A DNA stretch of 21,070 nucleotides, taken from assembly GCA_031409655.1 (NCBI GenBank), contig JANNXQ010000017.1, positions 1 to 21,070 on the forward strand, in the 5' to 3' direction. The stretch comes from Chthoniobacteraceae bacterium. GTDB taxonomy: Bacteria; Verrucomicrobiota; Verrucomicrobiia; Chthoniobacterales; Chthoniobacteraceae. Shown here one piece after another: positions 1 through 20,169 of the stretch. Position numbers and translations under genes: made by a program. The notes beneath the pieces were generated by a model. That model saw only the letters and a list, made by a program, of their open reading frames with translations. It did no database searches and had not been told where the DNA came from. The stretch's first letter is position 1, and each line of letters starts with the position of its first letter.

Positions 1-1
1 A

Positions 2-478
2 GCGCAGAGCGTCGGCCAGGAACTCGAACTCACCCGCCGCCGTCTCGCCATGCTCGCGCTCAAGGCCCCGCTCGCCGGCATCGTCGTCTCCGGTGATCTG
101 CGTCGCGCGGAAGGTCAGCCGGTGCAGCAGGGGCAGGTGCTCTTTGAAGTCGCGCCGCTGGAGGAAATGATCGTCGAGATCGATGTGCCGGATCGTGAAA
201 TCAGCCGCGTGCGCGCTGGCCTGCCGCTGCGCTTCCGGCTCGAAGCCTTCGCTGGCCAGCAGTGGAGCGGGAAAGTCGATCGACTCCATCCGCGCAGCGA
301 GCAGCGGGAAGGCCGCAACGTTTTCATCTGCGAAGCTCCGATCCGCAATGGCGATGCGCGCCACGATCTCCGCCCCGGAATGCGCGGGCGCGCGGTCATC
401 GAGGGCGACCGCCGGCCGCTCCTCTGGATCGTCGGCCATCGGCTCTGGGACTTCATCGTGGAGGGGCTGCTCTGGTGA
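2..478 (+). CDS. Periplasmic adaptor / membrane fusion protein (HlyD/RND-MFP family), C-terminal part; 5' truncated by window edge
   Basis: Frame is open from position 2 (AQSVGQELELTRRRLAMLALKAPLAGIVV...) to TGA 476-478. It shows the lipoyl-half motif 'LKAPLAGIVV..EGQPVQQGQVLFEVAP', beta-barrel 'VEIDVPDREISRVRAG..FRLEAF' and the MFP C-terminal 'LRPGMRGRAVI'. Confidence 0.85.
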   Translation, partial: AQSVGQELELTRRRLAMLALKAPLAGIVVSGDLRRAEGQPVQQGQVLFEVAPLEEMIVEIDVPDREISRVRAGLPLRFRLEAFAGQQWSGKVDRLHPRSEQREGRNVFICEAPIRNGDARHDLRPGMRGRAVIEGDRRPLLWIVGHRLWDFIVEGLLW

Positions 479-509
479 CGCCGCGCGCGTCCCGGCACCA
501 CTTCCTTTG

Positions 510-2675
510 ATGGAATCATCCGCCAGCCGTTCCGTCGTCGAATCCGGCTCGCTGCGTCCGCAGCTCCGCGAAGGCCTGCGCTTTTCCGTGCAAGGCGAGG
601 CCGCCGCGCGGGTCTGCGTGATCGAAGATCCGCACACCTCGCGCTTTCATCGCGTGGGTCTCCATGAGTACCGCTTCATCGCCGAGCTGGATGGCGCGCG
701 CACCCTGGCCTCGATCCTCGCCAAGCTCGCGCGCCATGGCGGCGGCGAATCTTTCAGCGAGGCCGAGGCGTTGCAGATCATCCGCTGGCTCGCCGGCAAT
801 CACCTGCTGGAAATCGAAAGCGTCCGCCCAGCGAGCGAGCGCGGTGAAATGGTACGCACGCTCGTCACCGCGATCACCTGGCTGAATCCGCTCATCCTCA
901 AGGTCCCGCTTGCTCGACCGGATCGACTCTTCGCCGCCCTCGCCCCCGCCTTCCGCTGGGCGCTCGGGGGCTTCGGATTCGTGGTCTGGTGCGTGGTCGT
1001 GCTCGCCGGTCTCGCGCAGGTCGCAGTCGAATGGACGCGCTTCTCCGCTGGCTTCGAAGGCATCCTCGCCCGCGACCGCTGGCTCTGGCTGCTGCTCGTC
1101 TGGACGGTGCTGAAACTCGCGCACGAATTCGCCCACGGGATTTTCTGCCGCCACTTCGGGTCCGCTGTCCGGGAGATCGGCGCGATCTTCGTGCTCTTTG
1201 TGCCGATGGGTTACGTCGATGCGACCACGAGCCTCGGCCTCGCCTCAAAGTGGCGCCGCATCATGGTCGCCTTTGCTGGCATCTACCTGGAGTTCTTCCT
1301 CGCTGGTCTTGCCGCCCTGGCTTGGGCGCGCACGCCGGAAGGCTCGCTCGCCGCGACGCTGCACTCCGTGATCATCACCGGCACGGTCGTCACACTTTTT
1401 TTCAATGCGAATCCGCTGATGCGCTTCGATGGGTACTTCATCCTGAGCGACCTGCTCGGCATCTCGAATCTCGCCACCCGCGGTCGCCAGTGGATGCAGG
1501 GTGCGCTGAGCTGGCTGTTCCTCGGAGGAAAGTCGCGCCGGCCGGCCAGGCCGCGCAATCGCGAGGAAGGAATCGTCGCCGGCTACGGCATCGCGGCGGG
1601 CTGCTGGCAGGTGCTCGTCGTGACGGGACTGCTCGTCGCCGCGAGTGTGACCCTGCGGGGCGGCGGACTGCTCTTCGCCGTGATCGCCGCCGCGCTCTGG
1701 CTCGGCGTCCCGCTCTCGCGCGGTGTTGGTGCGCTGTTCCGGTCCGTGCGCGCAGAGACGGGCCGCGGCACCGCCGTTGCGTTTCGAGCAGCCGTGATCG
1801 CGCTCGCTGTCGTCGCGCTCGCTCTCGTCCCTTTTCACCGTTCGGTGTCGAGCGCCGGAGTCATCGAACTCGCTGACACGCTCGTGCTGCGCACGGAGTG
1901 TCCCGGTTTCATCGCCGCGACACACGTGCGCGACGGCGAGAAGGTCGAGGCCGGCCAGCTTCTCTTCGAACTGCGCAATGATGACGCCACCGCCGCCCTC
2001 GAGCGCAGTCGGGTAGAACTCGCCGGACAGGAACTTCGCGCGCGTCTCGCTTTCACTCGCGAGAACGTCTCGGCCGCGCAAGCAGAGCAGGCGAAAGCGG
2101 AAGCCCTGCGCAAGACCGTGGCGCAGCACGAGAGCTACGTGGCGACCTTGCAGATCCGCGCGCCCTTCGCTGGCCGCCTGACCGCGCGGGAGCTCGATCG
2201 CCTCCCCGGCGCTTTCTTCCGCGCCGGCGAAGAACTCGCGCACCTCGGTCGCGCCGACGGGTGCGACGTGCGGATCGCGCTCGATCAGGAAGATGAGCCG
2301 CATTTCCGCGCCTCGCTCGAGCAGGCGCTGCGCGTGCGGGTCGAGGGAATGGGCACCGATTTCCCGGCGACGCTGACCCGCGTCGAATCCCGCGCGACGC
2401 GGGAACTGATCGACCCCGCCCTCACCGCGCTCGGCGGCGGCCCGCTGGCCGTGCGGCACGTCGAGGAGGAAACCTCGACGGATGCGCGGCAATCCGCGGA
2501 GTACGAATTGGCCGAGCCGCACTTCGTCGCCCTCGCGCGCCTCGCCACGGACGAGCCCTTCTGCGCCGGACAAATGGCGCGAGTGAAACTGCACAGCACC
2601 CGCGCCGTGAATCTCTGGGAGCTGGCGCAAGGCCGCCTCGCCCGCTGGCTGAAGACCTTCACCGCCCAGGCCTAA
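510..2675 (+). CDS. Fusion protein: N-terminal PqqD/RRE-like domain + M50 (site-2 protease) zinc metalloprotease + C-terminal HlyD/biotinyl-lipoyl adaptor domain (~721 aa)
   Basis: ATG 510 chosen because the ORF-track start at 183 overlaps the upstream gene. HExxH motif 'LAHEFAHG' (1122-1136) and 'NANPLMRFDGY' NPxxxxDG motif (1404-1436) lie among several hydrophobic segments. The C-terminal part has 'VRDGEKVEAGQLLFEL', a coiled coil and 'IRAPFAGRL'. Confidence 0.88.
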   Translation: MESSASRSVVESGSLRPQLREGLRFSVQGEAAARVCVIEDPHTSRFHRVGLHEYRFIAELDGARTLASILAKLARHGGGESFSEAEALQIIRWLAGNHLLEIESVRPASERGEMVRTLVTAITWLNPLILKVPLARPDRLFAALAPAFRWALGGFGFVVWCVVVLAGLAQVAVEWTRFSAGFEGILARDRWLWLLLVWTVLKLAHEFAHGIFCRHFGSAVREIGAIFVLFVPMGYVDATTSLGLASKWRRIMVAFAGIYLEFFLAGLAALAWARTPEGSLAATLHSVIITGTVVTLFFNANPLMRFDGYFILSDLLGISNLATRGRQWMQGALSWLFLGGKSRRPARPRNREEGIVAGYGIAAGCWQVLVVTGLLVAASVTLRGGGLLFAVIAAALWLGVPLSRGVGALFRSVRAETGRGTAVAFRAAVIALAVVALALVPFHRSVSSAGVIELADTLVLRTECPGFIAATHVRDGEKVEAGQLLFELRNDDATAALERSRVELAGQELRARLAFTRENVSAAQAEQAKAEALRKTVAQHESYVATLQIRAPFAGRLTARELDRLPGAFFRAGEELAHLGRADGCDVRIALDQEDEPHFRASLEQALRVRVEGMGTDFPATLTRVESRATRELIDPALTALGGGPLAVRHVEEETSTDARQSAEYELAEPHFVALARLATDEPFCAGQMARVKLHSTRAVNLWELAQGRLARWLKTFTAQA

Positions 2676-2885
2676 GCTCCGGGGAGCATACGCGTCTTGC
2701 GTGTGGGTTTCGGCGTCCCGCCGAAACGAACTTTCCAGCCCGCACTTTCTCGCGAGCGATCAGCTACCCCAAAGCCCGCCGGGAAGTGCAAAGAGTGCAG
2801 AGCATTCGCGAGGGCGGACGCGCAAATAAGTTCGTCGCGGCGAGACGCCGCGACCAACACGCGAGACGCGGATGCTCCCCGGGGC
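2676..2885. repeat. REPIN/MITE-like inverted-repeat element, copy 1 (58-nt arms, 94-nt spacer)
   Basis: Arm 2676-2733 versus the reverse complement of arm 2828-2885: 49/58 identical by manual alignment. Each arm holds nested hairpins with 3-nt loops (gtttcggcg-tcc-cgccgaaac; gtcgcggcg-aga-cgccgcgac). The element fills the whole gap between two convergent stop codons and has a second copy at 17577-17815. Confidence 0.9.
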
Positions 2886-3701
2886 CTACCGCGCCACCGT
2901 GCTCACCGGGGCCAGGGTACACCGGGCGCCGCTGCGGAGTTTCCCCTCCGCATTCTCGATTGAGAATTTCACCCGCACCGTGCCGCTCGCCGCGTCGGTA
3001 ATCGGGCTGACGAAATCCACCGTGGCCGGGATCCGCGTTTGCGAATCCAGCAGAAGGAGGTCGAGTCGGTCGCCCGCTTTGAGCGCTTCGGTGCGATCTG
3101 GAGTGAGGAAGAGATTCGCGGCGAGCTTGTCGATCTGGACCACCGTCAGCACGTGCGGTGAGGCCGTGGAAACGCTCTCGCTCGGATCGCGTTTGATTTC
3201 CGTCACCACGCCATCCACCGGGCTGCGCATCGTGCGCGCTTCGATCATCGCCTCGATCTTCCGCACCTGCGCCTGCTTGATCGTCACCTCTGTCGCCGCC
3301 TTCTCGGATTCTTCCGGCGTCACGCGCGTCTGCTGCGAAAGCTCCACCACCCGTTCGCGCCGCGTGCCGGCCAGCTTCGCTTCCGCGCGCGCGATCTCGA
3401 GTTCGGCCGCCAGCACCGCGGTGTCCAGCTTCGCCAGCACCTGCCCTTGTTTCACGCGATCGCCTTCTTTCACCAGCATCTCCCCGATGACGCCTGTCTC
3501 GCCCGCGGAGACGGTGATGAGGCGGTAAGGCTCGGTGTAGCCGAGGGTGGAGGACTCGTCGGCGAGGGCGCTGAAAACACCAAACTCCAAACGCCAAACG
3601 CCAAACATCAAACGCAGAAACATCGAGCCCGCACACAACGTGGACGTTGCCCGAGTTTGGCGTTTGAAGTTTGGCGTTTGAAGTTTGGTGTTTTCTTTCA
3701 T
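2886..3701 (-). CDS. Short periplasmic adaptor / efflux RND membrane fusion protein (271 aa; alternative start at 3623)
   Basis: Motifs 'GVIGEMLVKEGDRVKQGQVLAKLD', a short helical hairpin, 'MRSPVDGVVTEI', 'VDFVSPITDAASGTVRVKFSIENAEGKLRSG'. The ATG lies 1 nt after the secA-like stop (TGA-C-ATG). Confidence 0.88.
   Translation of the reverse strand: MKENTKLQTPNFKRQTRATSTLCAGSMFLRLMFGVWRLEFGVFSALADESSTLGYTEPYRLITVSAGETGVIGEMLVKEGDRVKQGQVLAKLDTAVLAAELEIARAEAKLAGTRRERVVELSQQTRVTPEESEKAATEVTIKQAQVRKIEAMIEARTMRSPVDGVVTEIKRDPSESVSTASPHVLTVVQIDKLAANLFLTPDRTEALKAGDRLDLLLLDSQTRIPATVDFVSPITDAASGTVRVKFSIENAEGKLRSGARCTLAPVSTVAR
3573..3695. repeat. Inverted pair of heptamer tandem arrays (6 x CAAACNN ... 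6 x NNGTTTG) inside the 5' end of the adaptor gene
   Basis: Left arm 3573-3615: g aaaacac caaactc caaacgc caaacgc caaacat caaacgc. Right arm 3653-3695: gagtttg gcgtttg aagtttg gcgtttg aagtttg gtgtttt c. 37/43 positions are complementary. The 37-nt spacer contains a small hairpin caacgt-gg-acgttg. Confidence 0.9.
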
Positions 3702-3702
3702 G

Positions 3703-5583
3703 TCAAAGGGTCTGCTTCAGTTCATCCACCCACTCGTCATTCTGCGCGAGGGCATGGCGTTGATCGCGGTCGAGGGCTTCGGCTTTGCGTTGGGCGCGCA
3801 GGAAGTGCGCCGCTGCGCTGAAAGAGAGTTCCCCGCACTTGCCCACTGCCGTCCGGGCGAGCTGCTGCGCGGCATCGGGAGCGTGGCGCAAGAGCAGATC
3901 GTCTTCGAGCGAAAGGAAAAATTGGGCGCCTCCTGGCTGGCCCTGGCGGGCGGCGCGGCCGGTGAGTTGGCGATCGATCCGCGCGGACTCGTGCCGCTCC
4001 AGGCCGATGACGTGGAGCCCGCCAGCGCGGCGGGATTCCTCCGGCACCGGGATGTGGGCGCCGCGGCCCGCCATGTTTGTCGCGATGGTCACCGCACCGG
4101 GTTCGCCCGCGAGTTCGACGATGGCGGCTTCTTCCGCGTCCTGTTTGGCATTGAGCACCCGGAAGGGAAAGCCAAGCGGGGCGAGCGCTTCCGCAAGCGC
4201 TTCGCTGTTTTCGATCGTGCGGGTGCCGATGAGCACGGGCTGACCTTCGCTCCGGCGCGTCCAGACATCGCGCGCCACGGCGGCGTGCTTTTGCTCGCGC
4301 GTGGCGAAGACCCGATCAGGCAGCAACTCCCGGCGCGAAGGCCGGTGGAGCGGGATCACTTCCGTCTCGAGGCCGTAGCTCGCGCGCAGCTCGTTCGCCA
4401 CCTCGGCGGCAGTGCCGGTCATTCCGCAGACCCGGCGATAGAGGCGGAAATACGCGGGCCGCGTAATCGTCGCTTCACTGGAATTTTCATCCGTGATGGT
4501 GACGCCCGCGCAGGCTTCGACAGCCTGGTGCATGCCGCCGCGCCAGGTGCGCTCGGGGCAGAGGCGACCGGTGAATTCATCCACGATCACCACTTCGTCC
4601 TTCCGCACGACGTAGTGGACATCGCGCCGGAAACGAAACCGCGCCCGCAGCGCCGTCTCGACGTAGTGCGACCAGCCGCGCTGGAGCAGGGGGATCACTT
4701 CTTCGGCGAGCAGCGTCATGGCGTGCTCCTCGCCAGCCGGCGTGAGCGTGAATTGCGGGGCCCTGAAATGCTCGCTGGCGACGAGTTGCTGCGCGACGCG
4801 ATCGGCGTGGAGATACACTTCCGGGGTGTCGCTCGGACGCTTCATCCCCCCGGCGATGATCAGCGGGCTGCGCGCTTCGTCGATGAGCACGCTGTCCGCT
4901 TCGTCGATGATCGCAAAGGCGTGCCCGCGCTGCGTCAGCGTGGGCCGTGTGGTCTTGCGGCGGAGCAGCACTTCGTGAAAGCGCGGCTCGGTGCGGCCGG
5001 CGGCCCGCAGCGCGAGCTGATCGCGCAGATAGTCGAACCCGAAATCCGTGCCGACGCCATAGGTCACGTCGCACTGGTAAGCCGCGCGTGCTGCCGCCGG
5101 ATTGGGCTTTTCGGGCAGCAGCCCGATCGTCAGCCCGAGCCGCTCAAAGGGGGTGCGGGCGAATTCGAAATCCCGCTGCGCGAGATACGGATTCACCGTG
5201 GCGACGTGGGCGCCGAGTCCGTGCAGGGCAAAACGAAACGCCGGGAGCAGCGCGACGAGCGTCTTGCCTTCGCCCGTGGCCATCTCGGCGAGCCGCCCTT
5301 CGGCGAGAGTCAGCCCGGCGAGCATCTGGCAATCGTAGGGCGCGAAACCATGACAACGCCGCACGGCTTCGCCAATCAGCGCGCTGGCTTCTGCCGTGAA
5401 ATCCGCGCGCACCGGTTCGTCGCGCGCCTCTTCGCGAAGCGCCGTCGCGCGTTCGCGCAGCCGGCCTTCTGACTCGGCGTGCAGGTCCGCGGAAAATTCG
5501 CGGACGCGTTCAAGTGCGAACGAATTCCGCCGCGCCGTGCGGCGCTCAGGCTCGAGACCGAACAGCGATTGGAGCGCACGCAT
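3703..5583 (-). CDS. secA: Secondary, C-terminally truncated SecA paralogue (SecA_DEAD-domain ATPase, 626 aa)
   Basis: SecA motifs occur in order: AEMATGEGKT, ATVNPYLAQRD, FGFDYLRD, IIDEADSVLIDEARSPLII, VDEFTGR, GMTGTA, GQPVLIGT, VLNAK, ATNMAGRG, GGLHVIGLERHESARIDRQLTGRAARQG, FLSLEDDLL. The protein ends ~60 aa later, so it is a paralogue rather than the housekeeping SecA. Confidence 0.93.
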   Translation of the reverse strand: MRALQSLFGLEPERRTARRNSFALERVREFSADLHAESEGRLRERATALREEARDEPVRADFTAEASALIGEAVRRCHGFAPYDCQMLAGLTLAEGRLAEMATGEGKTLVALLPAFRFALHGLGAHVATVNPYLAQRDFEFARTPFERLGLTIGLLPEKPNPAAARAAYQCDVTYGVGTDFGFDYLRDQLALRAAGRTEPRFHEVLLRRKTTRPTLTQRGHAFAIIDEADSVLIDEARSPLIIAGGMKRPSDTPEVYLHADRVAQQLVASEHFRAPQFTLTPAGEEHAMTLLAEEVIPLLQRGWSHYVETALRARFRFRRDVHYVVRKDEVVIVDEFTGRLCPERTWRGGMHQAVEACAGVTITDENSSEATITRPAYFRLYRRVCGMTGTAAEVANELRASYGLETEVIPLHRPSRRELLPDRVFATREQKHAAVARDVWTRRSEGQPVLIGTRTIENSEALAEALAPLGFPFRVLNAKQDAEEAAIVELAGEPGAVTIATNMAGRGAHIPVPEESRRAGGLHVIGLERHESARIDRQLTGRAARQGQPGGAQFFLSLEDDLLLRHAPDAAQQLARTAVGKCGELSFSAAAHFLRAQRKAEALDRDQRHALAQNDEWVDELKQTL

Positions 5584-5592
5584 CGCGGCAGC

Positions 5593-7371
5593 TCATTTGC
5601 CCGGGCGCGTGGACTTGCCGTCGCGGGCGCCTTTTTCGAGATGGAGCAGCGGGAGCTTTTTTTCGTCGCGATCACGGACGATCTCGACGGACGAGTAGTT
5701 CAGCAGCCGGCCCTTGGCGCGTTCGAGATTCACGATGGCGATCTGATAGTTTGCTCCGGCGCGGATGAATTCCTCCTCGGCATTGGCGCGGCGATCCTGG
5801 GTGTCGAGGACGGTGTCGAGGTAGTTGGCCATCAGCGTGTCTTCGCCCACGGCTTGCAGGGCGCGGCGGGCCTGGAGCGTTTCGAGATCTTCGGTGAAGG
5901 CTTTCACTGCCGAGTATTTCGCCTGCGTCTCGCGATAGGCGGTGGCCACCTCGCGCGCGCTGATCTTCACCTCGAGCAGCACGGTGTCGATGGTCGTACG
6001 GAGTTGGTCGAGCTGCTGGCGGAGTTCGAGTTTGCGGCGTTCGAGGCGCGCGCGGGCGATTTGATTTTCCAGCGGGATGCTGAAGACAAATCCTGCGCCC
6101 CAGCCCGGGGAGCCGGTGGAGTACTCGCGGCTGTAGGCCCCGTCAAAGCCGCCGTCGTCGAGTCCGCCGAGCGAGCCTTGAAGCACGAGATTCAGCTCGG
6201 GCATGAGTTCATTGCGTGACATTTTCTCCCGCACCGTGGCGGCGCGGAGTTGGAGAAAAGCCTGGTTGATCTCGGGCCGGCTCTCGAGCGCGGCCTGCGC
6301 GGCTGCCTGGCCGTCGAAGCTCGCCGGCGTCAGCACCAGCAAGTCCCGCGGGATGATCTCGATATTCGGATCATTCAGCAAAGTGGGGTCGCTGGTCAGG
6401 GCCTTGAGCCGGTCCTGCGCATTGCGCACGGCGGCTTCGGAGCGGACGAGATCCGAGCGCCGTGAAGCCAGCGCGCTCTCGGCGCGGAAGAGCTGGCTTT
6501 TCCCGGCGTCCATCTTCTGGCGGGCGCGCAGTTCATCGGTCACCCGCGCGGTGTCTTCGACGAGCCGCGATTTTTGCAAATAGGTCACGCGAGCGGCATA
6601 GAGCGCCCAGTAGGTGCGGGTGATTTCGAGGAGGTGCGATTCGCTCTGGCGGATGAATTCCTGCATCGCGATTTCCGAATCGAGCCGCGCGATCTGGATC
6701 ACGGAACGGTTGTAGCCCACGCCCGCACCCTTGAGCAGCGGCTGCACGACGGAGACGGAGAGCTTCGCGTTCGATTGCGGATTGGGGAGGAAGTAGATCG
6801 AGTTGTTGTCCGTGCGGGAGAGGGTCTGCGAGACACTGATCTCTGCGCCAGTGATCACCTTCTTTTTCACCCCGGCCTCGAATGACCACTCATCCTGCTT
6901 GAAGCGCGTGGAGCCGCCGGTCGTAAGGCTGCTGCCGACGGGATCATTGGTGCGGTCAAATTTTCCCTGGAGGTAGGCGTTCGTGTCGAAGGCGCCCTTC
7001 GCCTCCTGGATGCCCGTCTCGCGGATCAGTGGCAGGTCGCTGAAGACGCGGATCTGGCTCGAATTGCGGATCGCCCGGACGTACAGCTCGTCCACCGAGA
7101 GGCGCTGGGCCCGGCTGGAGTCGCCGATCGTGTTGCGCTGGCCGCGAATCCACCAAGGGGAAAAATCTTCCGGCATTTTTGCCTCGGTCTGGTTCGCAAA
7201 GCTGCGATTTCCGCGCCCGGCGCTGGCCGCTTCGCGGCGGTAGCCCTCGAGGATTTCCTGCTCAACGGCGGTCGGCTCGAGCGCCACATTTTCCTGCGCG
7301 AGCAAGCGTCCGAGGCTGATGAAGACAAGGATCGCGGCAAGGTGGCAGGTGTGGATGATAGGGTATTTCAT
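5593..7371 (-). CDS. TolC-family outer membrane factor (~592 aa; alternative start 7398)
   Basis: Signal-peptide-like MKYPIIHTCHLAAILVFISLGRLLA-QEN, followed by two OEP-like repeats with helical and beta-strand motifs: 'IQEAKGAFDT', 'LSVSVVQPLLKGAG', 'ALESRPEINQA', 'RNELMPELNLVLQ', 'GFVFSIPLENQIARA', 'YQIAIVNLERAKGRLL'. Confidence 0.88.
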   Translation of the reverse strand: MKYPIIHTCHLAAILVFISLGRLLAQENVALEPTAVEQEILEGYRREAASAGRGNRSFANQTEAKMPEDFSPWWIRGQRNTIGDSSRAQRLSVDELYVRAIRNSSQIRVFSDLPLIRETGIQEAKGAFDTNAYLQGKFDRTNDPVGSSLTTGGSTRFKQDEWSFEAGVKKKVITGAEISVSQTLSRTDNNSIYFLPNPQSNAKLSVSVVQPLLKGAGVGYNRSVIQIARLDSEIAMQEFIRQSESHLLEITRTYWALYAARVTYLQKSRLVEDTARVTDELRARQKMDAGKSQLFRAESALASRRSDLVRSEAAVRNAQDRLKALTSDPTLLNDPNIEIIPRDLLVLTPASFDGQAAAQAALESRPEINQAFLQLRAATVREKMSRNELMPELNLVLQGSLGGLDDGGFDGAYSREYSTGSPGWGAGFVFSIPLENQIARARLERRKLELRQQLDQLRTTIDTVLLEVKISAREVATAYRETQAKYSAVKAFTEDLETLQARRALQAVGEDTLMANYLDTVLDTQDRRANAEEEFIRAGANYQIAIVNLERAKGRLLNYSSVEIVRDRDEKKLPLLHLEKGARDGKSTRPGK

Positions 7372-7427
7372 GGGCTGACTCGGGAGCGCTCCAAGCATGG
7401 AGCGGCACCCTCTTGCAACTGGCAGAC

Positions 7428-7443
7428 TGCTAGTTCCGTGCCC
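7428..7443 (-). promoter_or_regulatory. Putative sigma-54 (-24/-12) promoter for the tolC-secA-adaptor operon
   Basis: Minus strand reads GGGCACG-GAAC-TAGCA versus consensus TGGCACG-N4-TTGCW, with exact GG-N10-GC spacing, 30-60 nt upstream of the candidate tolC starts. Confidence 0.55.
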
Positions 7444-7453
7444 GGCAGGCTCA

Positions 7454-7469
7454 CGGCACGATCGTCGCT
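7454..7469 (+). promoter_or_regulatory. Putative sigma-54 (-24/-12) promoter for the giant protein gene
   Basis: Plus strand reads CGGCACG-ATCG-TCGCT with exact GG-N10-GC spacing. Predicted +1 is near 7480, immediately before GTG-ATG (7480-7485). Confidence 0.55.
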
Positions 7470-7482
7470 ATGCCAGCAGGTG

Positions 7483-10400: not shown

Positions 10401-13400
10401 TGACACCGCGACCGTGCAGCTTGCCAGCCCGACCGTGGCCAAGGCGCTCACCGCCACGGAAGTCACCACCGGTAACAACAGCAACACCCAGGCGACGATC
10501 GGCGAACTCGTGACCTACACGCTCACCATCACCGCGCCCGAAGGCACCACGCCTTCTGCGACACTCGTCGATACCATGGCCGCGGGGCTCGCGTTTGTGG
10601 ACGTGGTGAGCGTCACGAATTCCGCGGGCCTCACGACCGCGAACACGATCGGCACCGGCACCGCGCCGACAAATGTCACCATCGCCGGCAGCGGCCGCAC
10701 GCTCACTTTCAACTTTGGCAACATCACGAATGCGGACAGCAGCAACGGCGCGGCCGAGACAATCACCATCGTCTATCGCACCGTCGTTCTCGACGCCCTC
10801 GCCAATCAAGCCGCCGTCACGCTCACGAATTCCGCGGTCTTCTCCGCTCAGTTCACGAATCAGCCCGGCGGCTCCCCGCAGAGCTACAGCCTGGCCGCGG
10901 TCGCGGCGGCGAATGTCACGATCATCGAGCCGGCGCTCGCGGTGGCGAAGACGGTCTCCTCGACGCTCGGCGGCGCCTACGCCGCGACGCTCACCAATCG
11001 CGACGCGGGGGACTCCGTCTTCTACCGCATCCGGATCACCAATGCCGCGGCCCAGCCCACGGCCTTCGATATCTTCCTCACCGACACGCTGCCCGCGACG
11101 CTCTCGGGCGCAACCATCGCGAGCGTGACCACGAGCGGTTTCGGCGCGACGCCGGTGCCAGTCGCCGGTGACTTCCAAATCTCGGGCGGCATCGTGGGCA
11201 TCAATCCCGCCGGACCGCGCGCAGGCGACATCGACATCCCGGCCGGCGCGACGCTCGATGTCTTCGTCGGCGGCACGCTCTCCTCCACGGCGCAGCCCGC
11301 GCAGAGCATCGCCAACACCGCCACGATTCGCTGGACGAGCATGGATGGCAGCGTCGGCACCCGCTCGACTTTCAACGCGGCCGCCACCGAGCGCAGCGGC
11401 GGCTCGCTCACGCCGGCGACGAACACGAACGCGAGCACGAACAACGCGATCCTCGACAACTACGCGGCCACCAGCGCGAGCGGCGCCGTGACGATCGTGA
11501 GTCCGACGCCGACCAAGACGATCGACGCCACTTCCGAATCCGGCACCGGCAACGTCGCCGGAGTCGAGCGCGTCGCCATTGGCGAAATCGTCCGCTACCG
11601 GCTCTCGTGGCGGATTCCCGAAGGCACGTCGAACAACCTGCGCTTCACCGACGCGCTGCCCACCGGCATGACCTTCCTGAACGACGGGACCGCCACACTC
11701 GCCTTCGTCTCGACGGGCGGCACGATCAGTTCTTCGATCGCGGCCATCGGCACCGGCGGGAGCGTCATCGGCGATGAAACCACCGTCGCCGGGATCAATC
11801 CGCAATTCGTCATCCCCGGTGCGCAGATCACCGGCGGCCCTTTCGTCAGCGGCACCGATCCCGTCTTCAATCTCGGCAACGTCGTGAACAACGACAACGA
11901 CGCGAACCAGGAATTCGCCGTGATCGAATTCAACGCCAACGTGCGCAATCAGACTTCGGCCCAGCGCTTCGACAACGTGAGCGGCGCGGACACCGGCGCG
12001 GTGAATCTCAGCAACACCGTGACCGTGGCGACGACGACCAGTTCCGTAGCTTCCGCCGCCGTCGTCGCGCGCATCACCGAGCCCGCGATCACCAATGTAA
12101 CCAAGACGATCTCGCCCGGTCCCTACGATGCCGGCGACTTCGTCACCTACACCGTCACCTTCTCGAATGTGAACTCGGTCGATGCCGCGCCCGCCTACGA
12201 CGTCGCGCTCACCGATCTGGTGCCCGCCTACTTCGACACCGTGACCTTTGGCAGCATCACCGCCACCGGCACGGCTTCCGGCCTGAGTGGGAGTGCGGTG
12301 GGGAATACGATCACCGCGAGTGTCGCGTCGCTGAATCCCGGCGCGACGATCACCGTCACCTTCACCGCGCGCTTCATCGGCAATGCGCCCGCGGGCCAGC
12401 AAGTCACGAACACCGCGAGCCTCACCTACAGCAGCCTGCCCGGCTCCGGCGCTGCGCTCAATGACGGGGTGGCCGCGACCACCGATAGCACGCCCGCGGC
12501 CGCGGGCACGGCGACCGGCGAACGCAATGGCTCCAGCGGCACGGGCGCCGACGCCGGCTTCCTGAATAACTACGCGGACATCGGCAGCGTGACGATCACG
12601 GCGGCGAATCCGACCTTCGACAAGACCTTCCAAGGCGGATCGCTCACCGCGGACGATACCAGCGTCGCGGGCAGCAGCGGCGCGACGGTCGTCCCCGGCG
12701 AGCAGGTCACCTACGACATTCTCATCGCTCTGCCGGAAGGTCTCACCCAGGCGCTCAGCGTGATCGACGCCGTGCCTGCGGGGCTGCGCATCGACGGCCT
12801 GCAAATCCTGACCACCACAGCATCCGCCCCGCAGCTCACCGCGGATTTCAATGGCAGCTTTGCGACGACGCCCACGCTCGGTGCGGCCTTCACCGGACCC
12901 GGAAATCTCACGCTGAACTTTGGCGATACCACCGTGGCCTCGGATAACGATGGGACGAATAACAGCTTCGTCATCCGCCTCACCGGCACGGTTCAGAACA
13001 TCGCCGGCAACACCGTCGGCGTGTCGCGCACCAATACCGCGACGGTGCGCTTCACCGATCCGAATACGGGATTGCCGGCCATCTTCGCCGACACGAATCC
13101 GGCCAATGATCCGGTCGTCACGGTCGCCGAGCCTGCGCTCACGATCGGCAAGTCGGTGAACTCCGTGACTGTCGATGCGGGCGATCCGCTCAGCTATACG
13201 ATCACGCTCGGCAATGCCTCGGGGCAGATCGCCTACGATGCGACGCTGAACGATCTGCTGCCCGCCTTCCTCAGCGGAGCGACGATCACTTCCGTCACCA
13301 AGTCCGGTGCGGGGACCATCTTCGTGAATGGGGTGGCGACCGATCCGGTCGCGAACACCGATGTCGTGATCTCGAGCGGCACGCTGCAATTTGCGGGCGG

Positions 13401-16400
13401 CTCGAATATCGACCTGGGCGCGGGGACGACTTTGCAGATCGTCGTGAGCGGCACCGTCGCGAGCACGGTCACGCCCAATCTGACGGTCAACAACACTGCG
13501 GCGACCACCTGGACGAGCACCGACGGGGCGAACGCCGACGAACGCGACGGCTCGGGAGGTGCGATCAACACTTACTCCGCGAGCAGCTCGATCCCCTTCA
13601 CGGTGCCCGTCGCGAGCATCACCAAGGCGCTCTTTTCCACCAGCGACGTGGTCACGACCGGGACGGATATCGCCATCGGCGAGACCGCGACTTACGTCCT
13701 CACCGTCACGCTGCCGGAAGGCACGGCGCCCAATCTTATCGTCACCGACGCCCTCCCCGCCGGGCTGCAATACGTCTCTGCGAGCATCGACCCGTCGGGC
13801 TTCGCCGGCACCGTGCCCGCGCCGACGATCAGCGGCGGCGCGGGCAATGGCGATGACGTGACCTTCACCTTCGGCAGCATTGCGACCACCGGAGACAACA
13901 ACGCGTCGAATAACAGCTTCGTCATCTTCGTCACCGCGCGCGCGCTCGACGGGCTGGGAAATATCGGCACGACACCGGGCCAGACCTCCCTCGCGAACAG
14001 TGCGTCGCTCGACATCACCGGCGACGGCGTAAGTCCCGCGACCACCCCGAATGTCACCGCAACCGTCGTGGAGCCGCGCCTGCAAATCACCAAGGCCGTG
14101 AGCGACAACACGCCCGACATTGGCCAGACGCTCAACTACACGCTGACCGTCGCGCACACCGCGTCGAGCACCGCGACCGCGAATGACGTGCTCGTGCGCG
14201 ACCTGCTCCCCGCCGGGCTCGCACTCGACACCGCGAGCATCCGCATCAATGGCGTGCTCATCGGGGCGTCACCGCTCGTCGCCGCGAATGCCTCCACGAG
14301 CAGCGCGCTGGATTTCCGCCTTACCTCGGTCGCCCTCGCGAGCACCGTCACCATTACTTACGATGCCGCGGTCACCAACAGCGTCGCGACCAGCGGCAGC
14401 GTGCTCGACAATCGCGCGAAGATTTACTGGGACAGTCTCGCCGGTTACGACGGCAACAACAGCACCCTCACCGGCACGCCCGATGGCAGCGAAGAGCGCG
14501 ACTTCGGCGCCACCCCCGGCTACGACGAAGCACCCACCCCCGGCGTCAATGACCCCGCGCAAGACAGCGAACGCGTGACGGTGAATACGAACACGATCTC
14601 CGGCTTCGTCTATCGCGATGACGACAGCAGCGGCACGCGCTCCGGGGGAGACACGGCCATCTCCGGAGTCACCCTCACGCTCACTGGCACGAGCACGCTC
14701 GGCCTCCCGATCAATACTTCGGTGATGAGCGCGGTGGATGGCAGTTACTCTTTCACCGGTCTGCCGCCCGGCACCTATCTCATCACCGAGACGCAGCCCG
14801 CGGGCTATGTGGACGGACTGGAGACGGCGGGAAATGTTGCGGGCACCTTTGGTGGCACCGTGTCCCCCGCGCCCGGCACCGAGACGATCAGCGCGATCAC
14901 CATCCCCGCGCAGTCGAATACCACCGAGCCGAACTACAACTTCGGCGAGACCCTGATCTCCAGCCTCGCCGGCTCGGTCTTCGTGGATGGAGACAATGAC
15001 GGCGTGCGCGACTTCGGCGAAGCGGCCCTCGCCGGCATCCCCGTCGTTCTCACCGGCACCGACATCTACGGTCAGGCCGTGACCTTGAATGCGACGACCG
15101 CTGCGGACGGTCGGTACAGTTTCGCCGGCCTGCGCCCCGGCAACTACACGCTCACCGAAGACGACAGCAGCGTGGTGCCCGGCACTTATCTCGATGGACG
15201 CGACCTGCCGGGCAGCGCCGGCGGCGCCCTCGGAGGAGGATCGCCCAAGCACGACGTGCTCACGGTCTCGCTCCCGCAGGGCACTGCGGGCGTGGACTAC
15301 AATTTCGGCGAAGTGCTTCCGTCATCGCTCGCGGGCTCCGTCTTCCTCGACGCGGATGGTAATGGCGTGCGCGGCGGCGCCGAGACGGGCCTTCCGAATG
15401 TGACCGTCGCCCTCACCGGCACGGACGATCGCGGCAATGCCGTCTCGCTCTCGACGCTCACGAATGCCACTGGCGCGTTCAACTTCACGGACCTGCGGCC
15501 CGGCAGCTACACCCTCACCGAGACGCAGCCCGCGGCCTATGCCGACGGCACCGACGCGCCCGGCACCCTCAGCGGTGCGCTGGCAGATGATGTCATCTCT
15601 GCCATCCCCGTGACGCCTGGTGTCGCGGGCACCGGCTACACCTTCGGCGAGCTCCCCGCCGGCATCTTCGGCACGGTCTTCATCGACCGCGATGCGGATG
15701 GCGTGATCGACACCGCGGACACAGCACGGCTCGGCGGCGTGGCGATTACCTTGCTCGACAGCGGCGGTGGCATCGTCGGCTCCACGCTCACCGCCGCGGA
15801 TGGCACTTACTTTTTCGACGGACTCGCCGCAGATACTTACACCGTCGTGCAGAGCCAGCCGACGGGTTACGGATCGAGCACCGCGAACAGCGTGAGCATC
15901 GTCCTGCCCGGCGGCGGCACCGCGTCCGCGGATTTCGGCGAGACCACCGGGTCGCTTGCGGGTGTAGTGTATCTCGATCGGAGTAACGACGGCGTGATCG
16001 ATGGTGGCGAAACTCCGACCTCCGGAACGACCGTCACGCTCACTGGCACCGACGCGACCGGCGCGACCATCACCCGCAGCACGCTCACGCTGGCCGACGG
16101 CAGCTACGCGTTTGGCGATTTGCTCGCCGGCACTTATCAAATCGTCGAGACGCAGCCCAGTGGCTACAGCGACGGGCGCGAGACGGTCGGCACTGGGGGC
16201 GGCGACGCCACGGTGAACGACCGCTTCACTGCCATCGCCCTCGCCGCCGGCGCAAGGGAGAGCGGTTATTTGTTTGGCGAGCGCCTGCCCACAGACCTCG
16301 TCACCACCAAGACCGACGGGCTGAATGCCGCGCGCCCCGGCCAGGTCATCACCTACACGATCACCGTGAGCAACGTTTCGCTGCAAGAGGTCGAGGGACT

Positions 16401-17574
16401 GCTCGTCACCGATCAATTCCCCGCCGATGCGCTCGAATTCCTGAGCGCCTCCAATGGCGGGGTCTTCAACGCCGCGACCGGCACGATCACCTGGAACCTC
16501 GGCCAGCTCGCCAGCGCCGGTGGGAGTGTCACCCTCACCATCGACGCTCGCGTCCGCACCCCCGCGCCGGCGCTCGTCGAGCGGATCGTCAACACCGTCA
16601 CGGCGATCGACACCCAAAACCCCGGCTCCGATCCCTCGCCCGAGAATAACACCGCGACCGACCGCGACGACCTCCCTGCGGCGCCCGATCTCTACATCGT
16701 AAAGACGACGAACCTCGCCACTGCGAAAGCCGGAAAGACGATCACTTACACCCTCAATGGCGGGAATTCGGGCGACCAATCCGCCGCGCGGGTGATCGTC
16801 TCCGATCCGCTGGCGCCGGGTCTGCGTTTCGTCTCGGCGACGCTCGGCGGGCGGCTCGTGGGCAACGCGGTGCAGTGGGATCTCGGCACGTTGGCCCCGG
16901 GCGAGACCTTCACGCTCAGTGTGACGGTCGTCGTCGAGCAGACGGTGGCGGGGAACTTCGTGAACACCGCGACCATCACCGACGCGAGCCAAGGCTTCGA
17001 AGATCCGACGCCGCAGAACAACACCTCCAGCGTCCCCGGTCAGATTGTGGCTTCGCAGACGTTCGCGTTCGATGGGTTCAATAACTTCGCTCGGAACAAT
17101 CTCGATCGCGCGCTCGACTGGCGCGTGCGCAGTCCCGAAGTGCTCGCCGACGCCATCCTCCCGCTGCAACCCATCTACAGTGGCGAAGCCGACCCCGGCT
17201 CCACCCTGGTGATCGAGCTGTATAATTCCCGCGGCGTGAACATCGGCTCGCAGACCGTCGTCACCGACACCGGCGGCAACTGGCTCGCCACCTTCCCGAG
17301 CACGATCCTGAAGGACGCGCCGAACACCGCGCGCATCACGCAGATCGCGGCGAGTTACAGCCTCAGCGATCCGTGGGGGCACAACCTCCGCACTTACTTC
17401 ACGCCCGCGATCAATAACGGCCACTTCTTCCTCGATCAGCGCGGCGGCGGCGACCTCACGGGCGAAGCCGCGCCGCTCCTCGGCGGCCTTGGGCTCGAGC
17501 AGCCGCTGCAGCTCGGCGCGGTGAAATATGGTGGTGAGTTCCTGACCAGCCAGTCCACCGCGAGCGGACGGTAA
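7483..17574 (+). CDS. Giant extracellular adhesin-like protein (~3363 aa): LEPR-XLL/planctomycete-type leader, ~12 isopeptide (D2-type/DUF11-like) Ig modules, 5 SdrD-B-like modules, 2 DUF11-like modules, C-terminal Ig-like tail
   Basis: Single 10-kb ORF, Thr/Ala/Gly/Asn/Asp/Val rich. Start MRRNPDNRHRRRPLLLETIEDRTLCSA chosen because the ORF-track start 7342 overlaps tolC. Repeating 'K..GD/GE.V.Y...D.LP...NTA' modules (~8100-14590), 'SxxGxV[FY]xDxDxDG' modules (~14590-16290) and 'DLxxxK..G..ITYT' modules (~16290-17040). Confidence 0.92.
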   Translation: MRRNPDNRHRRRPLLLETIEDRTLCSAVPAVAISAPPQPLVGEQIQLSVAFDNAHPTDSGFGPYVDVVLPATGADGDGAQTDDGISFVNGSATYLGAAVTTTVLTFDGAGNAAHPYARDASGAAVVVTGTPGNQLVVFQLPFGSFAPTQPAATINFSANVSNLADVGTGLNLQARGGFQYGDDALDNPASDPSLVGAYASSTVTPQLFTLTKTFLGLEDETATGPNFLRQYRITVDVAAGQTLTNLDLTDALPGTLQYVSTDATTIRGTPTGTTAVSTPGTSTPGGTLTRRFASVTGTTATNDAELLFTYFVPRIDSGSGVIVNATSGNAVTIGNNARTSGTWVPLDGRDTGGVVSIDPAGPEHTLTAKSIATQKSVAIVTDTGAVGATPGDTLEYTVQVQVSDYFAFQNLVLTDLISDGQHWDSTFTPTMSWNEHGTFAAVGLNATNYTVAQNFTGAVASGNLTIDPAANDGTTTVSFRVSDEMVTRGQDGKLLGGGIPNGGTGVGALPNNPPLPFGPTTMTVRFRTVIQDSFNDTFASGEAPLNPRDVLADAVTINGDLLQVNNVTTTTGQSEADTSAASIAIVNTAVSKSIYAINGSTNLAPFTGPAGQLLVSPADTVTYRLQFAVPTGDVENLTLNDYLPLPVFDATQVTAFQDTISAAPPAAGFGKFGPNETLRALTGVPPTITTNATNNLVTFNHGTADDPANTPRIIDLLFTVTVSNQPFTDGLFLTNQVQVSENNTQQPAVAAVSDAIVQIQLQEPAVFIAKGVVGYNTTGLTLGGIAFSAASAASSFTGTVSNATQAAAIGASNLAGNLVDAGDEVRYAIVVQNTGRNDAFDVNLTDGVVAGYTIPGSLAAANLVVRRGDGTLLTSGTDYTASINGGGVLSLTLTDNYTSGNTSGDTDSGALSRGQNANTGLAITNGSNTVVITYDLTLAASTTQTRSTLTNTATLTNYAGAEGGVDFTTTDLTDTATVQLASPTVAKALTATEVTTGNNSNTQATIGELVTYTLTITAPEGTTPSATLVDTMAAGLAFVDVVSVTNSAGLTTANTIGTGTAPTNVTIAGSGRTLTFNFGNITNADSSNGAAETITIVYRTVVLDALANQAAVTLTNSAVFSAQFTNQPGGSPQSYSLAAVAAANVTIIEPALAVAKTVSSTLGGAYAATLTNRDAGDSVFYRIRITNAAAQPTAFDIFLTDTLPATLSGATIASVTTSGFGATPVPVAGDFQISGGIVGINPAGPRAGDIDIPAGATLDVFVGGTLSSTAQPAQSIANTATIRWTSMDGSVGTRSTFNAAATERSGGSLTPATNTNASTNNAILDNYAATSASGAVTIVSPTPTKTIDATSESGTGNVAGVERVAIGEIVRYRLSWRIPEGTSNNLRFTDALPTGMTFLNDGTATLAFVSTGGTISSSIAAIGTGGSVIGDETTVAGINPQFVIPGAQITGGPFVSGTDPVFNLGNVVNNDNDANQEFAVIEFNANVRNQTSAQRFDNVSGADTGAVNLSNTVTVATTTSSVASAAVVARITEPAITNVTKTISPGPYDAGDFVTYTVTFSNVNSVDAAPAYDVALTDLVPAYFDTVTFGSITATGTASGLSGSAVGNTITASVASLNPGATITVTFTARFIGNAPAGQQVTNTASLTYSSLPGSGAALNDGVAATTDSTPAAAGTATGERNGSSGTGADAGFLNNYADIGSVTITAANPTFDKTFQGGSLTADDTSVAGSSGATVVPGEQVTYDILIALPEGLTQALSVIDAVPAGLRIDGLQILTTTASAPQLTADFNGSFATTPTLGAAFTGPGNLTLNFGDTTVASDNDGTNNSFVIRLTGTVQNIAGNTVGVSRTNTATVRFTDPNTGLPAIFADTNPANDPVVTVAEPALTIGKSVNSVTVDAGDPLSYTITLGNASGQIAYDATLNDLLPAFLSGATITSVTKSGAGTIFVNGVATDPVANTDVVISSGTLQFAGGSNIDLGAGTTLQIVVSGTVASTVTPNLTVNNTAATTWTSTDGANADERDGSGGAINTYSASSSIPFTVPVASITKALFSTSDVVTTGTDIAIGETATYVLTVTLPEGTAPNLIVTDALPAGLQYVSASIDPSGFAGTVPAPTISGGAGNGDDVTFTFGSIATTGDNNASNNSFVIFVTARALDGLGNIGTTPGQTSLANSASLDITGDGVSPATTPNVTATVVEPRLQITKAVSDNTPDIGQTLNYTLTVAHTASSTATANDVLVRDLLPAGLALDTASIRINGVLIGASPLVAANASTSSALDFRLTSVALASTVTITYDAAVTNSVATSGSVLDNRAKIYWDSLAGYDGNNSTLTGTPDGSEERDFGATPGYDEAPTPGVNDPAQDSERVTVNTNTISGFVYRDDDSSGTRSGGDTAISGVTLTLTGTSTLGLPINTSVMSAVDGSYSFTGLPPGTYLITETQPAGYVDGLETAGNVAGTFGGTVSPAPGTETISAITIPAQSNTTEPNYNFGETLISSLAGSVFVDGDNDGVRDFGEAALAGIPVVLTGTDIYGQAVTLNATTAADGRYSFAGLRPGNYTLTEDDSSVVPGTYLDGRDLPGSAGGALGGGSPKHDVLTVSLPQGTAGVDYNFGEVLPSSLAGSVFLDADGNGVRGGAETGLPNVTVALTGTDDRGNAVSLSTLTNATGAFNFTDLRPGSYTLTETQPAAYADGTDAPGTLSGALADDVISAIPVTPGVAGTGYTFGELPAGIFGTVFIDRDADGVIDTADTARLGGVAITLLDSGGGIVGSTLTAADGTYFFDGLAADTYTVVQSQPTGYGSSTANSVSIVLPGGGTASADFGETTGSLAGVVYLDRSNDGVIDGGETPTSGTTVTLTGTDATGATITRSTLTLADGSYAFGDLLAGTYQIVETQPSGYSDGRETVGTGGGDATVNDRFTAIALAAGARESGYLFGERLPTDLVTTKTDGLNAARPGQVITYTITVSNVSLQEVEGLLVTDQFPADALEFLSASNGGVFNAATGTITWNLGQLASAGGSVTLTIDARVRTPAPALVERIVNTVTAIDTQNPGSDPSPENNTATDRDDLPAAPDLYIVKTTNLATAKAGKTITYTLNGGNSGDQSAARVIVSDPLAPGLRFVSATLGGRLVGNAVQWDLGTLAPGETFTLSVTVVVEQTVAGNFVNTATITDASQGFEDPTPQNNTSSVPGQIVASQTFAFDGFNNFARNNLDRALDWRVRSPEVLADAILPLQPIYSGEADPGSTLVIELYNSRGVNIGSQTVVTDTGGNWLATFPSTILKDAPNTARITQIAASYSLSDPWGHNLRTYFTPAINNGHFFLDQRGGGDLTGEAAPLLGGLGLEQPLQLGAVKYGGEFLTSQSTASGR

Positions 17575-17576
17575 GG

Positions 17577-17815
17577 AGCGCGGTCGCGGAGGTTCGGGTG
17601 CCATACGCGTCCCGCGTGTTGGTCGCGGCGTCCCGCCGCGACGCACTTTGTGAACCGAGCGCTTCAGCAAGAGCTCCGCACCGGGAAGACTCGCCAGCGG
17701 GTTTTGCAGGCGCGGAGGTCTTTCCAAAACGCCTTTGCAGGGAAGTTCGTCGCGGCGGGACGCCGCGACCAACACGCGAGACGCGCATGGTACCCGGAAC
17801 TCCGCGATTCGCGCT
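17577..17815. repeat. REPIN/MITE-like inverted-repeat element, copy 2 (72/73-nt arms, 94-nt spacer)
   Basis: Arm 17577-17648 versus the reverse complement of 17743-17815 shows 8 differences in 73 columns. It shares the core cgcgtcycgcgtgttggtcgcggcgtcycgccgcgacgmactt with copy 1 and begins 2 nt after the giant gene stop. Confidence 0.9.
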
Positions 17816-17855
17816 TTCTCGACAAAGGAGCGCGGTCTTTTCAGTATCTCGCCTC

Positions 17856-19220: not shown

Positions 19221-19254
19221 AGGAGAGCGAGTGGGCCGCCAGGCCGCCGCCGCT

Positions 19255-20163: not shown

Positions 20164-20169
20164 GACCGA

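Follow-up and report, generated by a model that had tools for sequence, protein, structure and literature searches.

How proteins of several thousand to 20,000 residues are transported across two membranes is largely unknown outside the paradigm of RTX proteins and ATP-binding cassette (ABC) transporters. The closest described loci were reported by Kamneva, Poudel and Ward (PLoS One 2015, PMC4452313), who in the relevant sections of that paper describe conserved loci in which a secondary SecA_DEAD protein accompanies proteins related to type I secretion systems (T1SS): M50-like/HlyD, GAF/HlyD and HlyD/biotin-lipoyl proteins and sometimes OEP, with no ABC transporter. The same sections suggest that SecA_DEAD is the ATPase and that the M50 protein may form a membrane pore, propose horizontal transfer, name Methylobacterium extorquens AM1 as a carrier and state that the biological role is unknown. 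A preliminary description of the DNA analysed here had pointed to this paper, correctly as far as these sections go, and knew of no mechanistic characterization of the module; we found no functional work after the 2015 paper in the literature outside subscription journals. The passages found in a 2021 Chem Rev review treat SecA only with SecYEG/SecDF, and parts of a preprint by West-Roberts et al. (bioRxiv 10.1101/2023.11.21.568195) describe giant proteins from Omnitrophota and Actinobacteriota that contain SecA_DEAD and preprotein-binding domains; the authors propose that the SecA part serves the giant protein's own export. Another preprint (bioRxiv 10.64898/2026.03.19.712371) reports expression and transfer of giant proteins in Chlorobium chlorochromatii, a species whose genome has a second secA. 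Here, we analyse a window of 21,070 nucleotides (nt), which is the entire contig C17 of a Verrucomicrobiota metagenome-assembled genome (MAG) from a freshwater-sediment bacterium (6.85 Mb in 306 contigs, completeness 94.9%, contamination 5.26%). The window is an instance of the conserved short SecA/M50-HlyD/GAF-HlyD/small HlyD/TolC module that was defined in silico in 2015, and a giant leader-tagged gene adjoins it. We estimate a probability of roughly 0.6 that the module is dedicated to exporting giant leader-tagged proteins and processing their leaders; we found no publication that assigns giant LEPR-type proteins to it as cargo.

The module and the giant gene are laid out as follows, where PqqD-like denotes a domain resembling the recognition element (RRE) for leaders of ribosomally synthesized and post-translationally modified peptides (RiPPs), and lengths are in amino acids (aa).

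2..478, plus strand: GAF-like-HlyD adaptor, 3' part with the 5' end cut (HlyD_D23 58 bits, HlyD_3 58 bits)
510..2675, plus strand: PqqD-like(RRE)/M50/HlyD fusion, 721 aa, with HEFAH (family scans, alignment and model)
3701..2886, minus strand: small HlyD adaptor, longest open reading frame (ORF) 271 aa (HlyD_3 62 bits, RND_mfp 121 bits)
5583..3703, minus strand: short SecA, 626 aa (SecA_DEAD 288 bits, PP_bind 86 bits, P-loop_SecA 179 bits)
7398..5593, minus strand: OEP/TolC outer-membrane factor (OEP 99 bits in two stretches)
7483..17574, plus strand: giant adhesin-like protein, 3,363 aa (DUF11, SdrD B-like, SpaA and isopeptide-forming pilin-type matches)
7522..7569, plus strand: leader motif LLLETIEDRTLCSAVP, residues 14-29 of the giant protein, a LEPR-XLL variant

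The module is arranged in two convergent halves, GAF-HlyD/M50-HlyD on the plus strand against small HlyD/SecA/TolC on the minus strand, and the giant gene diverges head-to-head from tolC. All genes named in the preliminary description lie where it had placed them, although the adaptor-type genes of the window number four and not three, the fourth being a T1SS-type HlyD just beyond the range that it covered. The tight coupling that it reported applies to tolC and secA, which are 9 nt apart, whereas the 1-nt gap between secA and the small adaptor is an artefact of taking the longest ORF. For the giant gene, the most likely start is ATG 7483 (MRRNPDN...) and not GTG 7342, which gives the 3,363-aa protein. 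For the fusion we place the start at ATG 510 and not at the opening of the ORF at 183, because ATG 510 follows the stop of the previous gene. The GC content of the window is about 66%, hence long spurious ORFs are frequent.

Neither the window nor its upstream flank contains an alternative inner-membrane transporter of the ABC or SecY type. The end of another contig of the assembly, C19, carries the same 141 nt as the start of the window, shared with no other contig, and the adaptor frame stays open across the join to give a 618-aa protein. Residues 25-618 of this joined adaptor align with the GAF-HlyD of the closest relative, locus L053 of a Chthoniobacteraceae MAG, in which the fusion protein is 56% identical and the DNA 67%. 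Among the genes in the 18.5 kb upstream on C19 are those for pyruvate kinase, an ACT protein, a beta-eliminating lyase, DUF6421, asparagine synthase, a Mrp-type ATPase, pyrB, a pyrC-like gene, a MoxR ATPase and a 535-aa protein without assignment. An ABC transporter or secY paralogue just upstream, which the preliminary description had named as a finding that would count against its export idea, is absent from the 18.5 kb inspected. The 87 ABC_tran matches of the genome include none on C17 and none in the last 18.5 kb of C19, and the nearest ABC gene lies about 21 kb before the first gene of the module, behind pyruvate kinase, pyrB, pyrC and other housekeeping genes. The genome holds a single SecY match, which is not on C17, and no SecY paralogue (no SecY2). 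The earlier statement that the window has no ABC, resistance-nodulation-division (RND) or secY/E/G genes is thus upheld by genome-wide search for ABC and SecY; RND pumps and secE/secG were absent from a Pfam scan of the main ORFs, no search directed at these families having been made. At window position 142, the first base past the 141-nt overlap, public contigs of three sequencing runs have A where the window has C, and a strain variant at this base probably caused the break between C19 and C17.

The module recurs widely. In a sample of 201 genomes of the phylum, relatives of the fusion occur in 50, and full-length short SecA, counted among the best 150 of 430 SecA matches, occurs in at least 15, including this genome and one (G004) in which the gene is split over two contigs. 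These genomes contribute 16 short-SecA loci including the window, and in 13 of the 15 others GAF-HlyD, M50-HlyD and SecA are colinear, with a recognisable TolC in at least 10. A wider scan with one genome per species gave 592 relatives of the fusion, of which the best 80 loci were kept; they span Planctomycetota, Verrucomicrobiota, Pseudomonadota, Thermodesulfobacteriota, Lentisphaerae and Spirochaetota. Short SecA is present in 47 of them, GAF-HlyD in 74, small HlyD in 46 and TolC in 32, and an ABC ATPase, searched with a profile built from 32 ABC domains of this genome, lies within 10 kb in only one, at the edge of the locus. Conservation of the gene neighbourhood, a check that had been proposed for this DNA, is thus seen on both scales and goes beyond what chance would give. 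Two gene orders prevail: TolC-small-GAF-M50-SecA in 34 loci and TolC-SecA-small-GAF-M50 in 13, all of the latter in Planctomycetota, and the window has this second order with one half inverted. Cultured carriers include Puniceibacterium sediminis DSM 29052, Dyella sp. OK004, Pseudomaricurvus alkylphenolicus KCTC 32386 and Seongchinamella unica.

In two of the 16 phylum loci, a separate MacB-type operon (OEP, HlyD, ABC ATPase and FtsX permease) stands between module genes. These operons, L015:6261-10924 and L019:6403-10849 (genomes G099 and G060, both of one family), are placed between GAF-HlyD and the tolC/small-HlyD genes.

The SecA of the module is consistently short. There are two PF07517 matches in the genome, a canonical SecA on contig C74 that has SecA_SW and the short SecA on C17 that does not. 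The latter comprises the first nucleotide-binding domain, the preprotein cross-linking domain, the second nucleotide-binding domain and a stub of the scaffold helix, and retains Walker A (GEGKT) and a DEAD-type Walker B. It aligns to residues 10-604 of Bacillus subtilis SecA (of about 800) and to Thermotoga maritima SecA up to residue 649 of 871. The region that it lacks comprises the wing, the C-tail, the greater part of the scaffold and the two-helix finger, the element that inserts into SecY. The protein scores under the cut-off of every SecA/SecA2 equivalog, the best SecA2 model giving 538 bits against a cut-off of 1085, and all 61 of the 61 relatives extracted are of similar length (566-660 aa). 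In a quick tree, the window SecA is sister to the SecAs of 13 Planctomycetota loci (approximate likelihood-ratio test 99), and the canonical SecA, the only one included, attaches between two short-SecA clades, so that the tree is compatible with one origin of short SecA or with two. An apparent M50-SecA fusion ORF of 1,343-1,384 aa in another genome (G062:C10) was rejected as a frame artefact: the M50-HlyD there ends with its own stop, and the long frame is the SecA frame running open upstream.

The M50-HlyD fusion combines three parts. Family scans give Peptidase_M50 at 24.1 bits (gathering score 27.2), HlyD_3 at 24 bits and RND_mfp at 63 bits, and the nearest curated protease family is the daptide HExxH protease NF041824, at 155 bits against a cut-off of 300. 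The residues H205-E206-x-x-H209 and N299-x-N301-P302-L303-x-x-x-D307 are invariant in 15 of 15 orthologues. Among solved chains the sole protease match is MjS2P (3b4r, E 0.033); a fold search with the full-length protein returned adaptor matches only, with no site-2 protease among the matches listed, and the best structural matches of the C-terminal part are MacA, MexA and AcrA. The full model (predicted local distance difference test, pLDDT, 74.7) has seven long membrane helices, counted by eye, between the RRE-like and adaptor parts, and this odd number would place the RRE-like domain in the cytoplasm and HlyD in the periplasm. The N-terminal ~100 residues match PqqD (PF05402) in 10 of 15 orthologues (best E 6e-5), the window copy alone giving no match. 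The model of this domain (pLDDT 77) has the strands and helices of the RRE fold, a winged helix with a three-stranded sheet and three helices, and compares with leader-bound TbiB1, leader-bound lasso B1 and PqqD at template-modelling scores of 0.61-0.74 per target. Going by the models, the N-terminus probably has a RiPP leader-recognition (PqqD/RRE) fold and may bind the leader. A complex prediction that paired the domain, taken as residues 1-125 and aligned in 15 rows, with the 54-aa leader, aligned in eight rows, gave an uncontrolled score of 0.28 against a mark of 0.32, which counts neither way on binding. The GAF-like adaptor has about 350 cytoplasmic residues, one transmembrane segment and then HlyD; a GAF domain is found in 13 of 13 orthologues, and in the window copy none is found at E<=0.001.

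The giant protein points to an N-terminal signal. Its Pfam matches include DUF11 in seven stretches and no RTX family, and its C-terminal 160 residues, on reading, contain no recognised tag. Eight aligned leaders, that of the window and seven from giant ORFs adjoining related modules, share the consensus F-x-L-E-x-L-E-x-R-I-L-L-S-A-x-P with E, R, S and A invariant, and the leader profile scores the window leader at 58 bits. NCBIfam NF012209 (LEPR-XLL) matches seven of the eight. The window leader is a LEPR-XLL variant, which shares the invariant E, R, S and A but has no NF012209 score. The leaders lack a Sec-type hydrophobic core (hydropathy peaks 0.83-1.93): the peaks are 0.83-1.56 in the relatives, which have charged residues inside the conserved core, and 1.93 in the window leader, compared with 2.46 for the TolC signal.

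The leader and the module go together both locally and across genomes. A large leader-tagged ORF adjoins the module in eight of the 16 phylum loci, and two further loci end less than 300 nt from secA. In Planctomycetota-type (type A) loci the leader-tagged ORF is divergent from tolC, as in the window. The 80 loci contain 703 ORFs with a length of 400 aa or more; a relaxed motif occurs in the first 200 residues of 20 of these and the reversed motif in 2. We regard 16 of the 20 as true leaders, and by this reading a leader-tagged ORF adjoins the module in about 16 of the 80 loci. At E<=1e-5 the leader profile finds 15 of the 201 phylum genomes, exactly the 15 with short SecA. In the five genomes without adjacent cargo, open frames that begin with the leader are found elsewhere; they have 5,448-20,466 aa, except for two of 291 aa and 441 aa, and the motif lies near the frame start at 16 of 16 places fetched. 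On the basis of adjacency and genome-level co-occurrence, giant LEPR-type proteins are well supported as the putative cargo of the module. In this genome a strict motif has five six-frame matches against two for the reversed motif, and two of the five head large frames, namely the window giant ORF and a weaker 1,021-aa FG-GAP candidate on contig C188. A second ORF with a near-identical leader, KLLLETFEDRILCSAA, followed by DUF4347 occurs at C134:3-1988 (minus strand; locus L133); the start of the contig cuts the frame off, and no module gene adjoins it.

We propose that export would proceed as follows. The leader would leave the ribosome first and be caught by the cytoplasmic PqqD-like domain of the M50-HlyD fusion. 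The short SecA, which keeps the ATPase core and preprotein clamp without the wing, two-helix finger and C-tail that serve SecYEG, would then feed the unfolded chain from N to C terminus into an inner-membrane portal made up of the seven-helix M50 domain and the adaptor anchors. From there the periplasmic HlyD parts of three different adaptors could form a duct to TolC, the metalloprotease site would remove the leader, and the cytoplasmic GAF-like domain may gate or regulate the process. A SecA motor, an RRE receptor and an M50 peptidase and portal are the roles that we infer as most likely, and export would be in one step. The preliminary description had assigned the motor, gate and peptidase roles in the same way; its interpretation is supported in part, namely for membership in the 2015 module, for the lack of an upstream ABC or secY gene and for the link to the cargo.

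The remaining features of the window are repeats and genes downstream of the giant gene.

2673..2888, no strand: palindromic repeat of ~215 nt, copy 1 (inverted arms 2673-2764 and 2797-2888)
3573..3695, no strand: palindromic repeat between secA and the small adaptor, 123 nt (41-nt arms, 88% complementary)
17584..17807, no strand: palindromic repeat, copy 2, directly after the giant gene (inverted and direct repeats)
~17991..19220, plus strand: T1SS-type HlyD, ~409 aa from a Met that precedes a transmembrane segment (HlyD_3 52 bits)
20163..19255, minus strand: HEAT-repeat protein (family scan)
21069..20170, minus strand: lysyl oxidase-like/PPC (pre-peptidase C-terminal) protein, 5' end cut (family scan)

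Direct copies of the first repeat lie at 17590-17649 and 17743-17797, with related copies on other contigs, and copies 1 and 2 bracket the HlyD-SecA-TolC-giant segment in direct orientation. The element at 3573-3695 also occurs, translated, on contigs C293, C43, C259 and C71. Codons 3-43 of the longest ORF of the small HlyD, including a signal-like stretch, are the hairpin of this recurring repeat, and translation therefore probably begins further downstream, with ATG 3623 as one option; orthologues in related loci have 241-268 aa. Likewise, the first 130 codons of the ORF at 17598 are repeat, and the T1SS-type HlyD more likely starts at the Met ahead of its membrane helix.

The T1SS-type HlyD has a strong transmembrane segment and scores 96 bits with TIGR01843 (cut-off 209) and 54 bits with NHLM_micro_HlyD. 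It has no ABC partner in the window and no homologue of at least 60 bits in the 15 and 80 related loci, and may be counted only as a candidate member of the system. Its sole paralogue in the genome is the HlyD beside the nearest ABC gene on C19. That gene (C19:14809-19116; L007:13305-17612) encodes an exporter of 1,035 aa that combines two cyclic-nucleotide-binding domains with a C39 peptidase and ABC membrane and ATPase domains; it has its own HlyD, follows a sigma-54 activator gene and looks like a bacteriocin/NHLP-type peptide exporter. The HEAT-repeat and lysyl oxidase-like/PPC genes (19255-21069) are convergent with the T1SS-type HlyD; lysyl oxidase homologues are uncommon in bacteria. 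An ORF of 560 aa on the plus strand at 19231-20913 was rejected as a gene: it is Gly/Arg-rich, matches no family and overlaps the minus-strand genes that do.

Several observations weigh against reading the module as an exporter of giant proteins. The support for function consists of correlation and fold, and no component matches a known protein-conducting inner-membrane channel. Both protease scores, Pfam M50 and NF041824, are below their cut-offs, and a fold search with the RRE-like domain gave no match at E<=0.001. NF012209 gives no match to the window leader even at E<=1, and the stretch within this leader is the most hydrophobic of the set, so that it may act as a Sec-type signal in this copy only. 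The co-occurrence test is partly circular, since seven of the 14 other matched genomes (G180 twice) supplied seed leaders, and its counts include kin and are not independent. The leader profile matches none of five Planctomycetota-type genomes, though the motif search sees leaders in two of their loci; missing these leaders, the profile is too narrow to prove absence. Short SecA and leader matches are lacking in 35 of the 50 fusion-bearing genomes, and this genome itself has two more GAF-HlyD/M50-HlyD sets with no SecA, TolC or ABC gene adjoining. Fourteen of the 80 loci are well flanked and have no SecA nearby. Of five genomes with such SecA-less loci that were checked, four carry one to three short SecAs elsewhere; in the fifth, a Terrimicrobiaceae MAG (G202), no short SecA was found in the assembly, and its locus (L078) has TolC, small HlyD, GAF-HlyD and M50-HlyD next to a leader-tagged ORF that is divergent and exceeds 1,691 aa, with no SecA between tolC and small HlyD. 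Lastly, the two operon halves of the window meet across a multi-copy palindromic repeat that no listed public contig spans, and of the two halves only GAF-HlyD/M50-HlyD is present at the corresponding place in the closest relative. Of the two additional sets in this genome, that at C287:7158-12462 (L003) has a small HlyD between GAF-HlyD and M50-HlyD, and that at C295:3073-8801 (L004) directly follows a gene for an extracytoplasmic function (ECF) sigma factor.

The meeting of the two halves at a repeat raises the question of whether the assembly joined the GAF-HlyD/M50-HlyD half to the HlyD-SecA-TolC-giant half at the repeat at 2673-2888 without the two being true neighbours. Depth in the public contigs rises about six-fold at this repeat (137 against ~20 in run X1), as would suit a multi-copy sequence. 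In the contigs of four DNA runs of one study, one run being possibly the source of the assembly, compared over positions 1-20000, none of those listed bridges 2538-3172 or the second repeat, short-sided joints 2733 -> 17742 appear in three runs, and the similarity to the closest relative stops at the end of M50-HlyD. We nevertheless regard a false join as very improbable: the repeat copies in the window are only 78-93% alike, so an assembly at k=141 is able to pass them, depth is even on either side in all four runs, and the sides of the joints are shorter than 31 letters and flagged as unreliable by the method itself. Even a false join would leave the functional reading unchanged, because both halves are in one genome. 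A different objection is that transport takes two steps, with the short SecA delivering the giant protein to the housekeeping SecYEG in the manner of SecA2, the M50 part trimming the leader, and the adaptors and TolC providing the outer-membrane step. To our knowledge, SecYEG is the sole known partner of SecA, and the retained preprotein cross-linking and nucleotide-binding domains, the lack of a recognised inner-membrane protein channel in the module and the moderately hydrophobic 12-mer of the window leader, followed by A-I-S-A, all fit such a route. It is made unlikely by the absence of SecA_SW and the end of the alignment to solved SecAs at B. subtilis residue 604, by the presence of one SecY and no paralogue, by the charged cores and low hydropathy peaks of the relatives' leaders, and by the position of short SecA within the adaptor/TolC operon in 47 of 80 loci.

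The module might also not export the giant protein at all, and instead combine an RRE-guided intramembrane protease with a GAF sensor in a device that spans the envelope and serves processing or signalling, or that exports small peptides. Its action would then be confined to the leader and might, for instance, free a signal peptide or serve the release, anchoring or regulation of the giant protein. Proteases of the M50 type are well known from signalling, the curated family closest to this one is a RiPP leader protease, and the RRE fold is typical of RiPP pathways; the 35 fusion-bearing genomes with M50-HlyD/GAF-HlyD sets and neither SecA nor a leader match, and the paralogous set that follows an ECF sigma gene, point in the same direction. 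Such a device leaves unexplained the joint inheritance of TolC, three adaptors and a translocation ATPase that has a preprotein clamp with ORFs that reach ~20,000 aa and show no export signal besides the leader, and no small precursor gene is seen between the module genes in the window. Hence we consider it decidedly improbable, and we retain dedicated export and leader processing of giant proteins as the preferred reading.

A further step would be to regard the module as a distinct diderm secretion system and not a variant of the T1SS, in which an RRE-read LEPR leader, a SecA-derived motor that lacks its SecY-binding parts and a portal of a protease fold and three kinds of adaptor, opening into TolC, act together and the leader is cut. 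We hold this stronger reading only tentatively, at somewhat less than even odds; export from N to C terminus, possibly co-translational, of proteins of 3,000-20,000 residues would be part of it. If the module does move such proteins, a SecA motor would have been re-used away from SecYEG, and an intramembrane protease fold and a RiPP-style leader reader would have been recruited into a secretion machine. The present analysis turns the gene-neighbourhood note of 2015 into a testable model, which specifies a cargo class, a leader in which four positions are invariant, a domain that may be the receptor and the catalytic residues; the window offers a clean example of it with adjacent cargo.

Compared with known systems, the window most resembles the locus of Kamneva, Poudel and Ward in having a second SecA_DEAD protein, a weakly matching M50/HlyD protein, a small HlyD and OEP, and no ABC transporter. 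It differs in that the module is split into two convergent halves, GAF goes undetected by Pfam and a giant cargo gene adjoins, whereas the relevant sections of the 2015 paper name no substrate, leader or PqqD-like domain. The leader domain itself is named LEPR-XLL in NCBIfam NF012209 ('LEPR-8K'), which assigns no export route. With the classical T1SS (HlyB-HlyD-TolC; SiiE, LapA) the window shares an adaptor and TolC duct, very large repetitive adhesin-like substrates and clustered genes. In place of the ABC pump there is a SecA-type ATPase and no ABC transporter, three different adaptors are present, two of them with cytoplasmic domains, and the signal-like motif is N-terminal, not C-terminal, on a protein without RTX repeats.

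The accessory SecA2 of Gram-positives and mycobacteria is likewise a second SecA used for few, often very large, surface proteins. The solved SecA2 chains have 778-786 aa, whereas the SecA here has 626 aa and no SecA_SW, and here there is no SecY2, the gene is in a diderm host and it lies next to TolC. RiPP systems offer a PqqD-like fold that binds leaders in solved complexes (TbiB1, lasso B1) and an HExxH membrane metalloprotease; their substrates have tens of residues, compared with 3,000-20,000 for the presumed substrates here, and in the window a periplasmic adaptor forms one protein with the RRE and the protease. The giant proteins described in parts of the West-Roberts et al. preprint also link SecA motor domains without scaffold or wing to giant proteins. 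There, SecA is a domain of the giant protein itself with type II secretion neighbours, whereas the 626-aa SecA of the window is a protein of its own, encoded within an adaptor/TolC operon.

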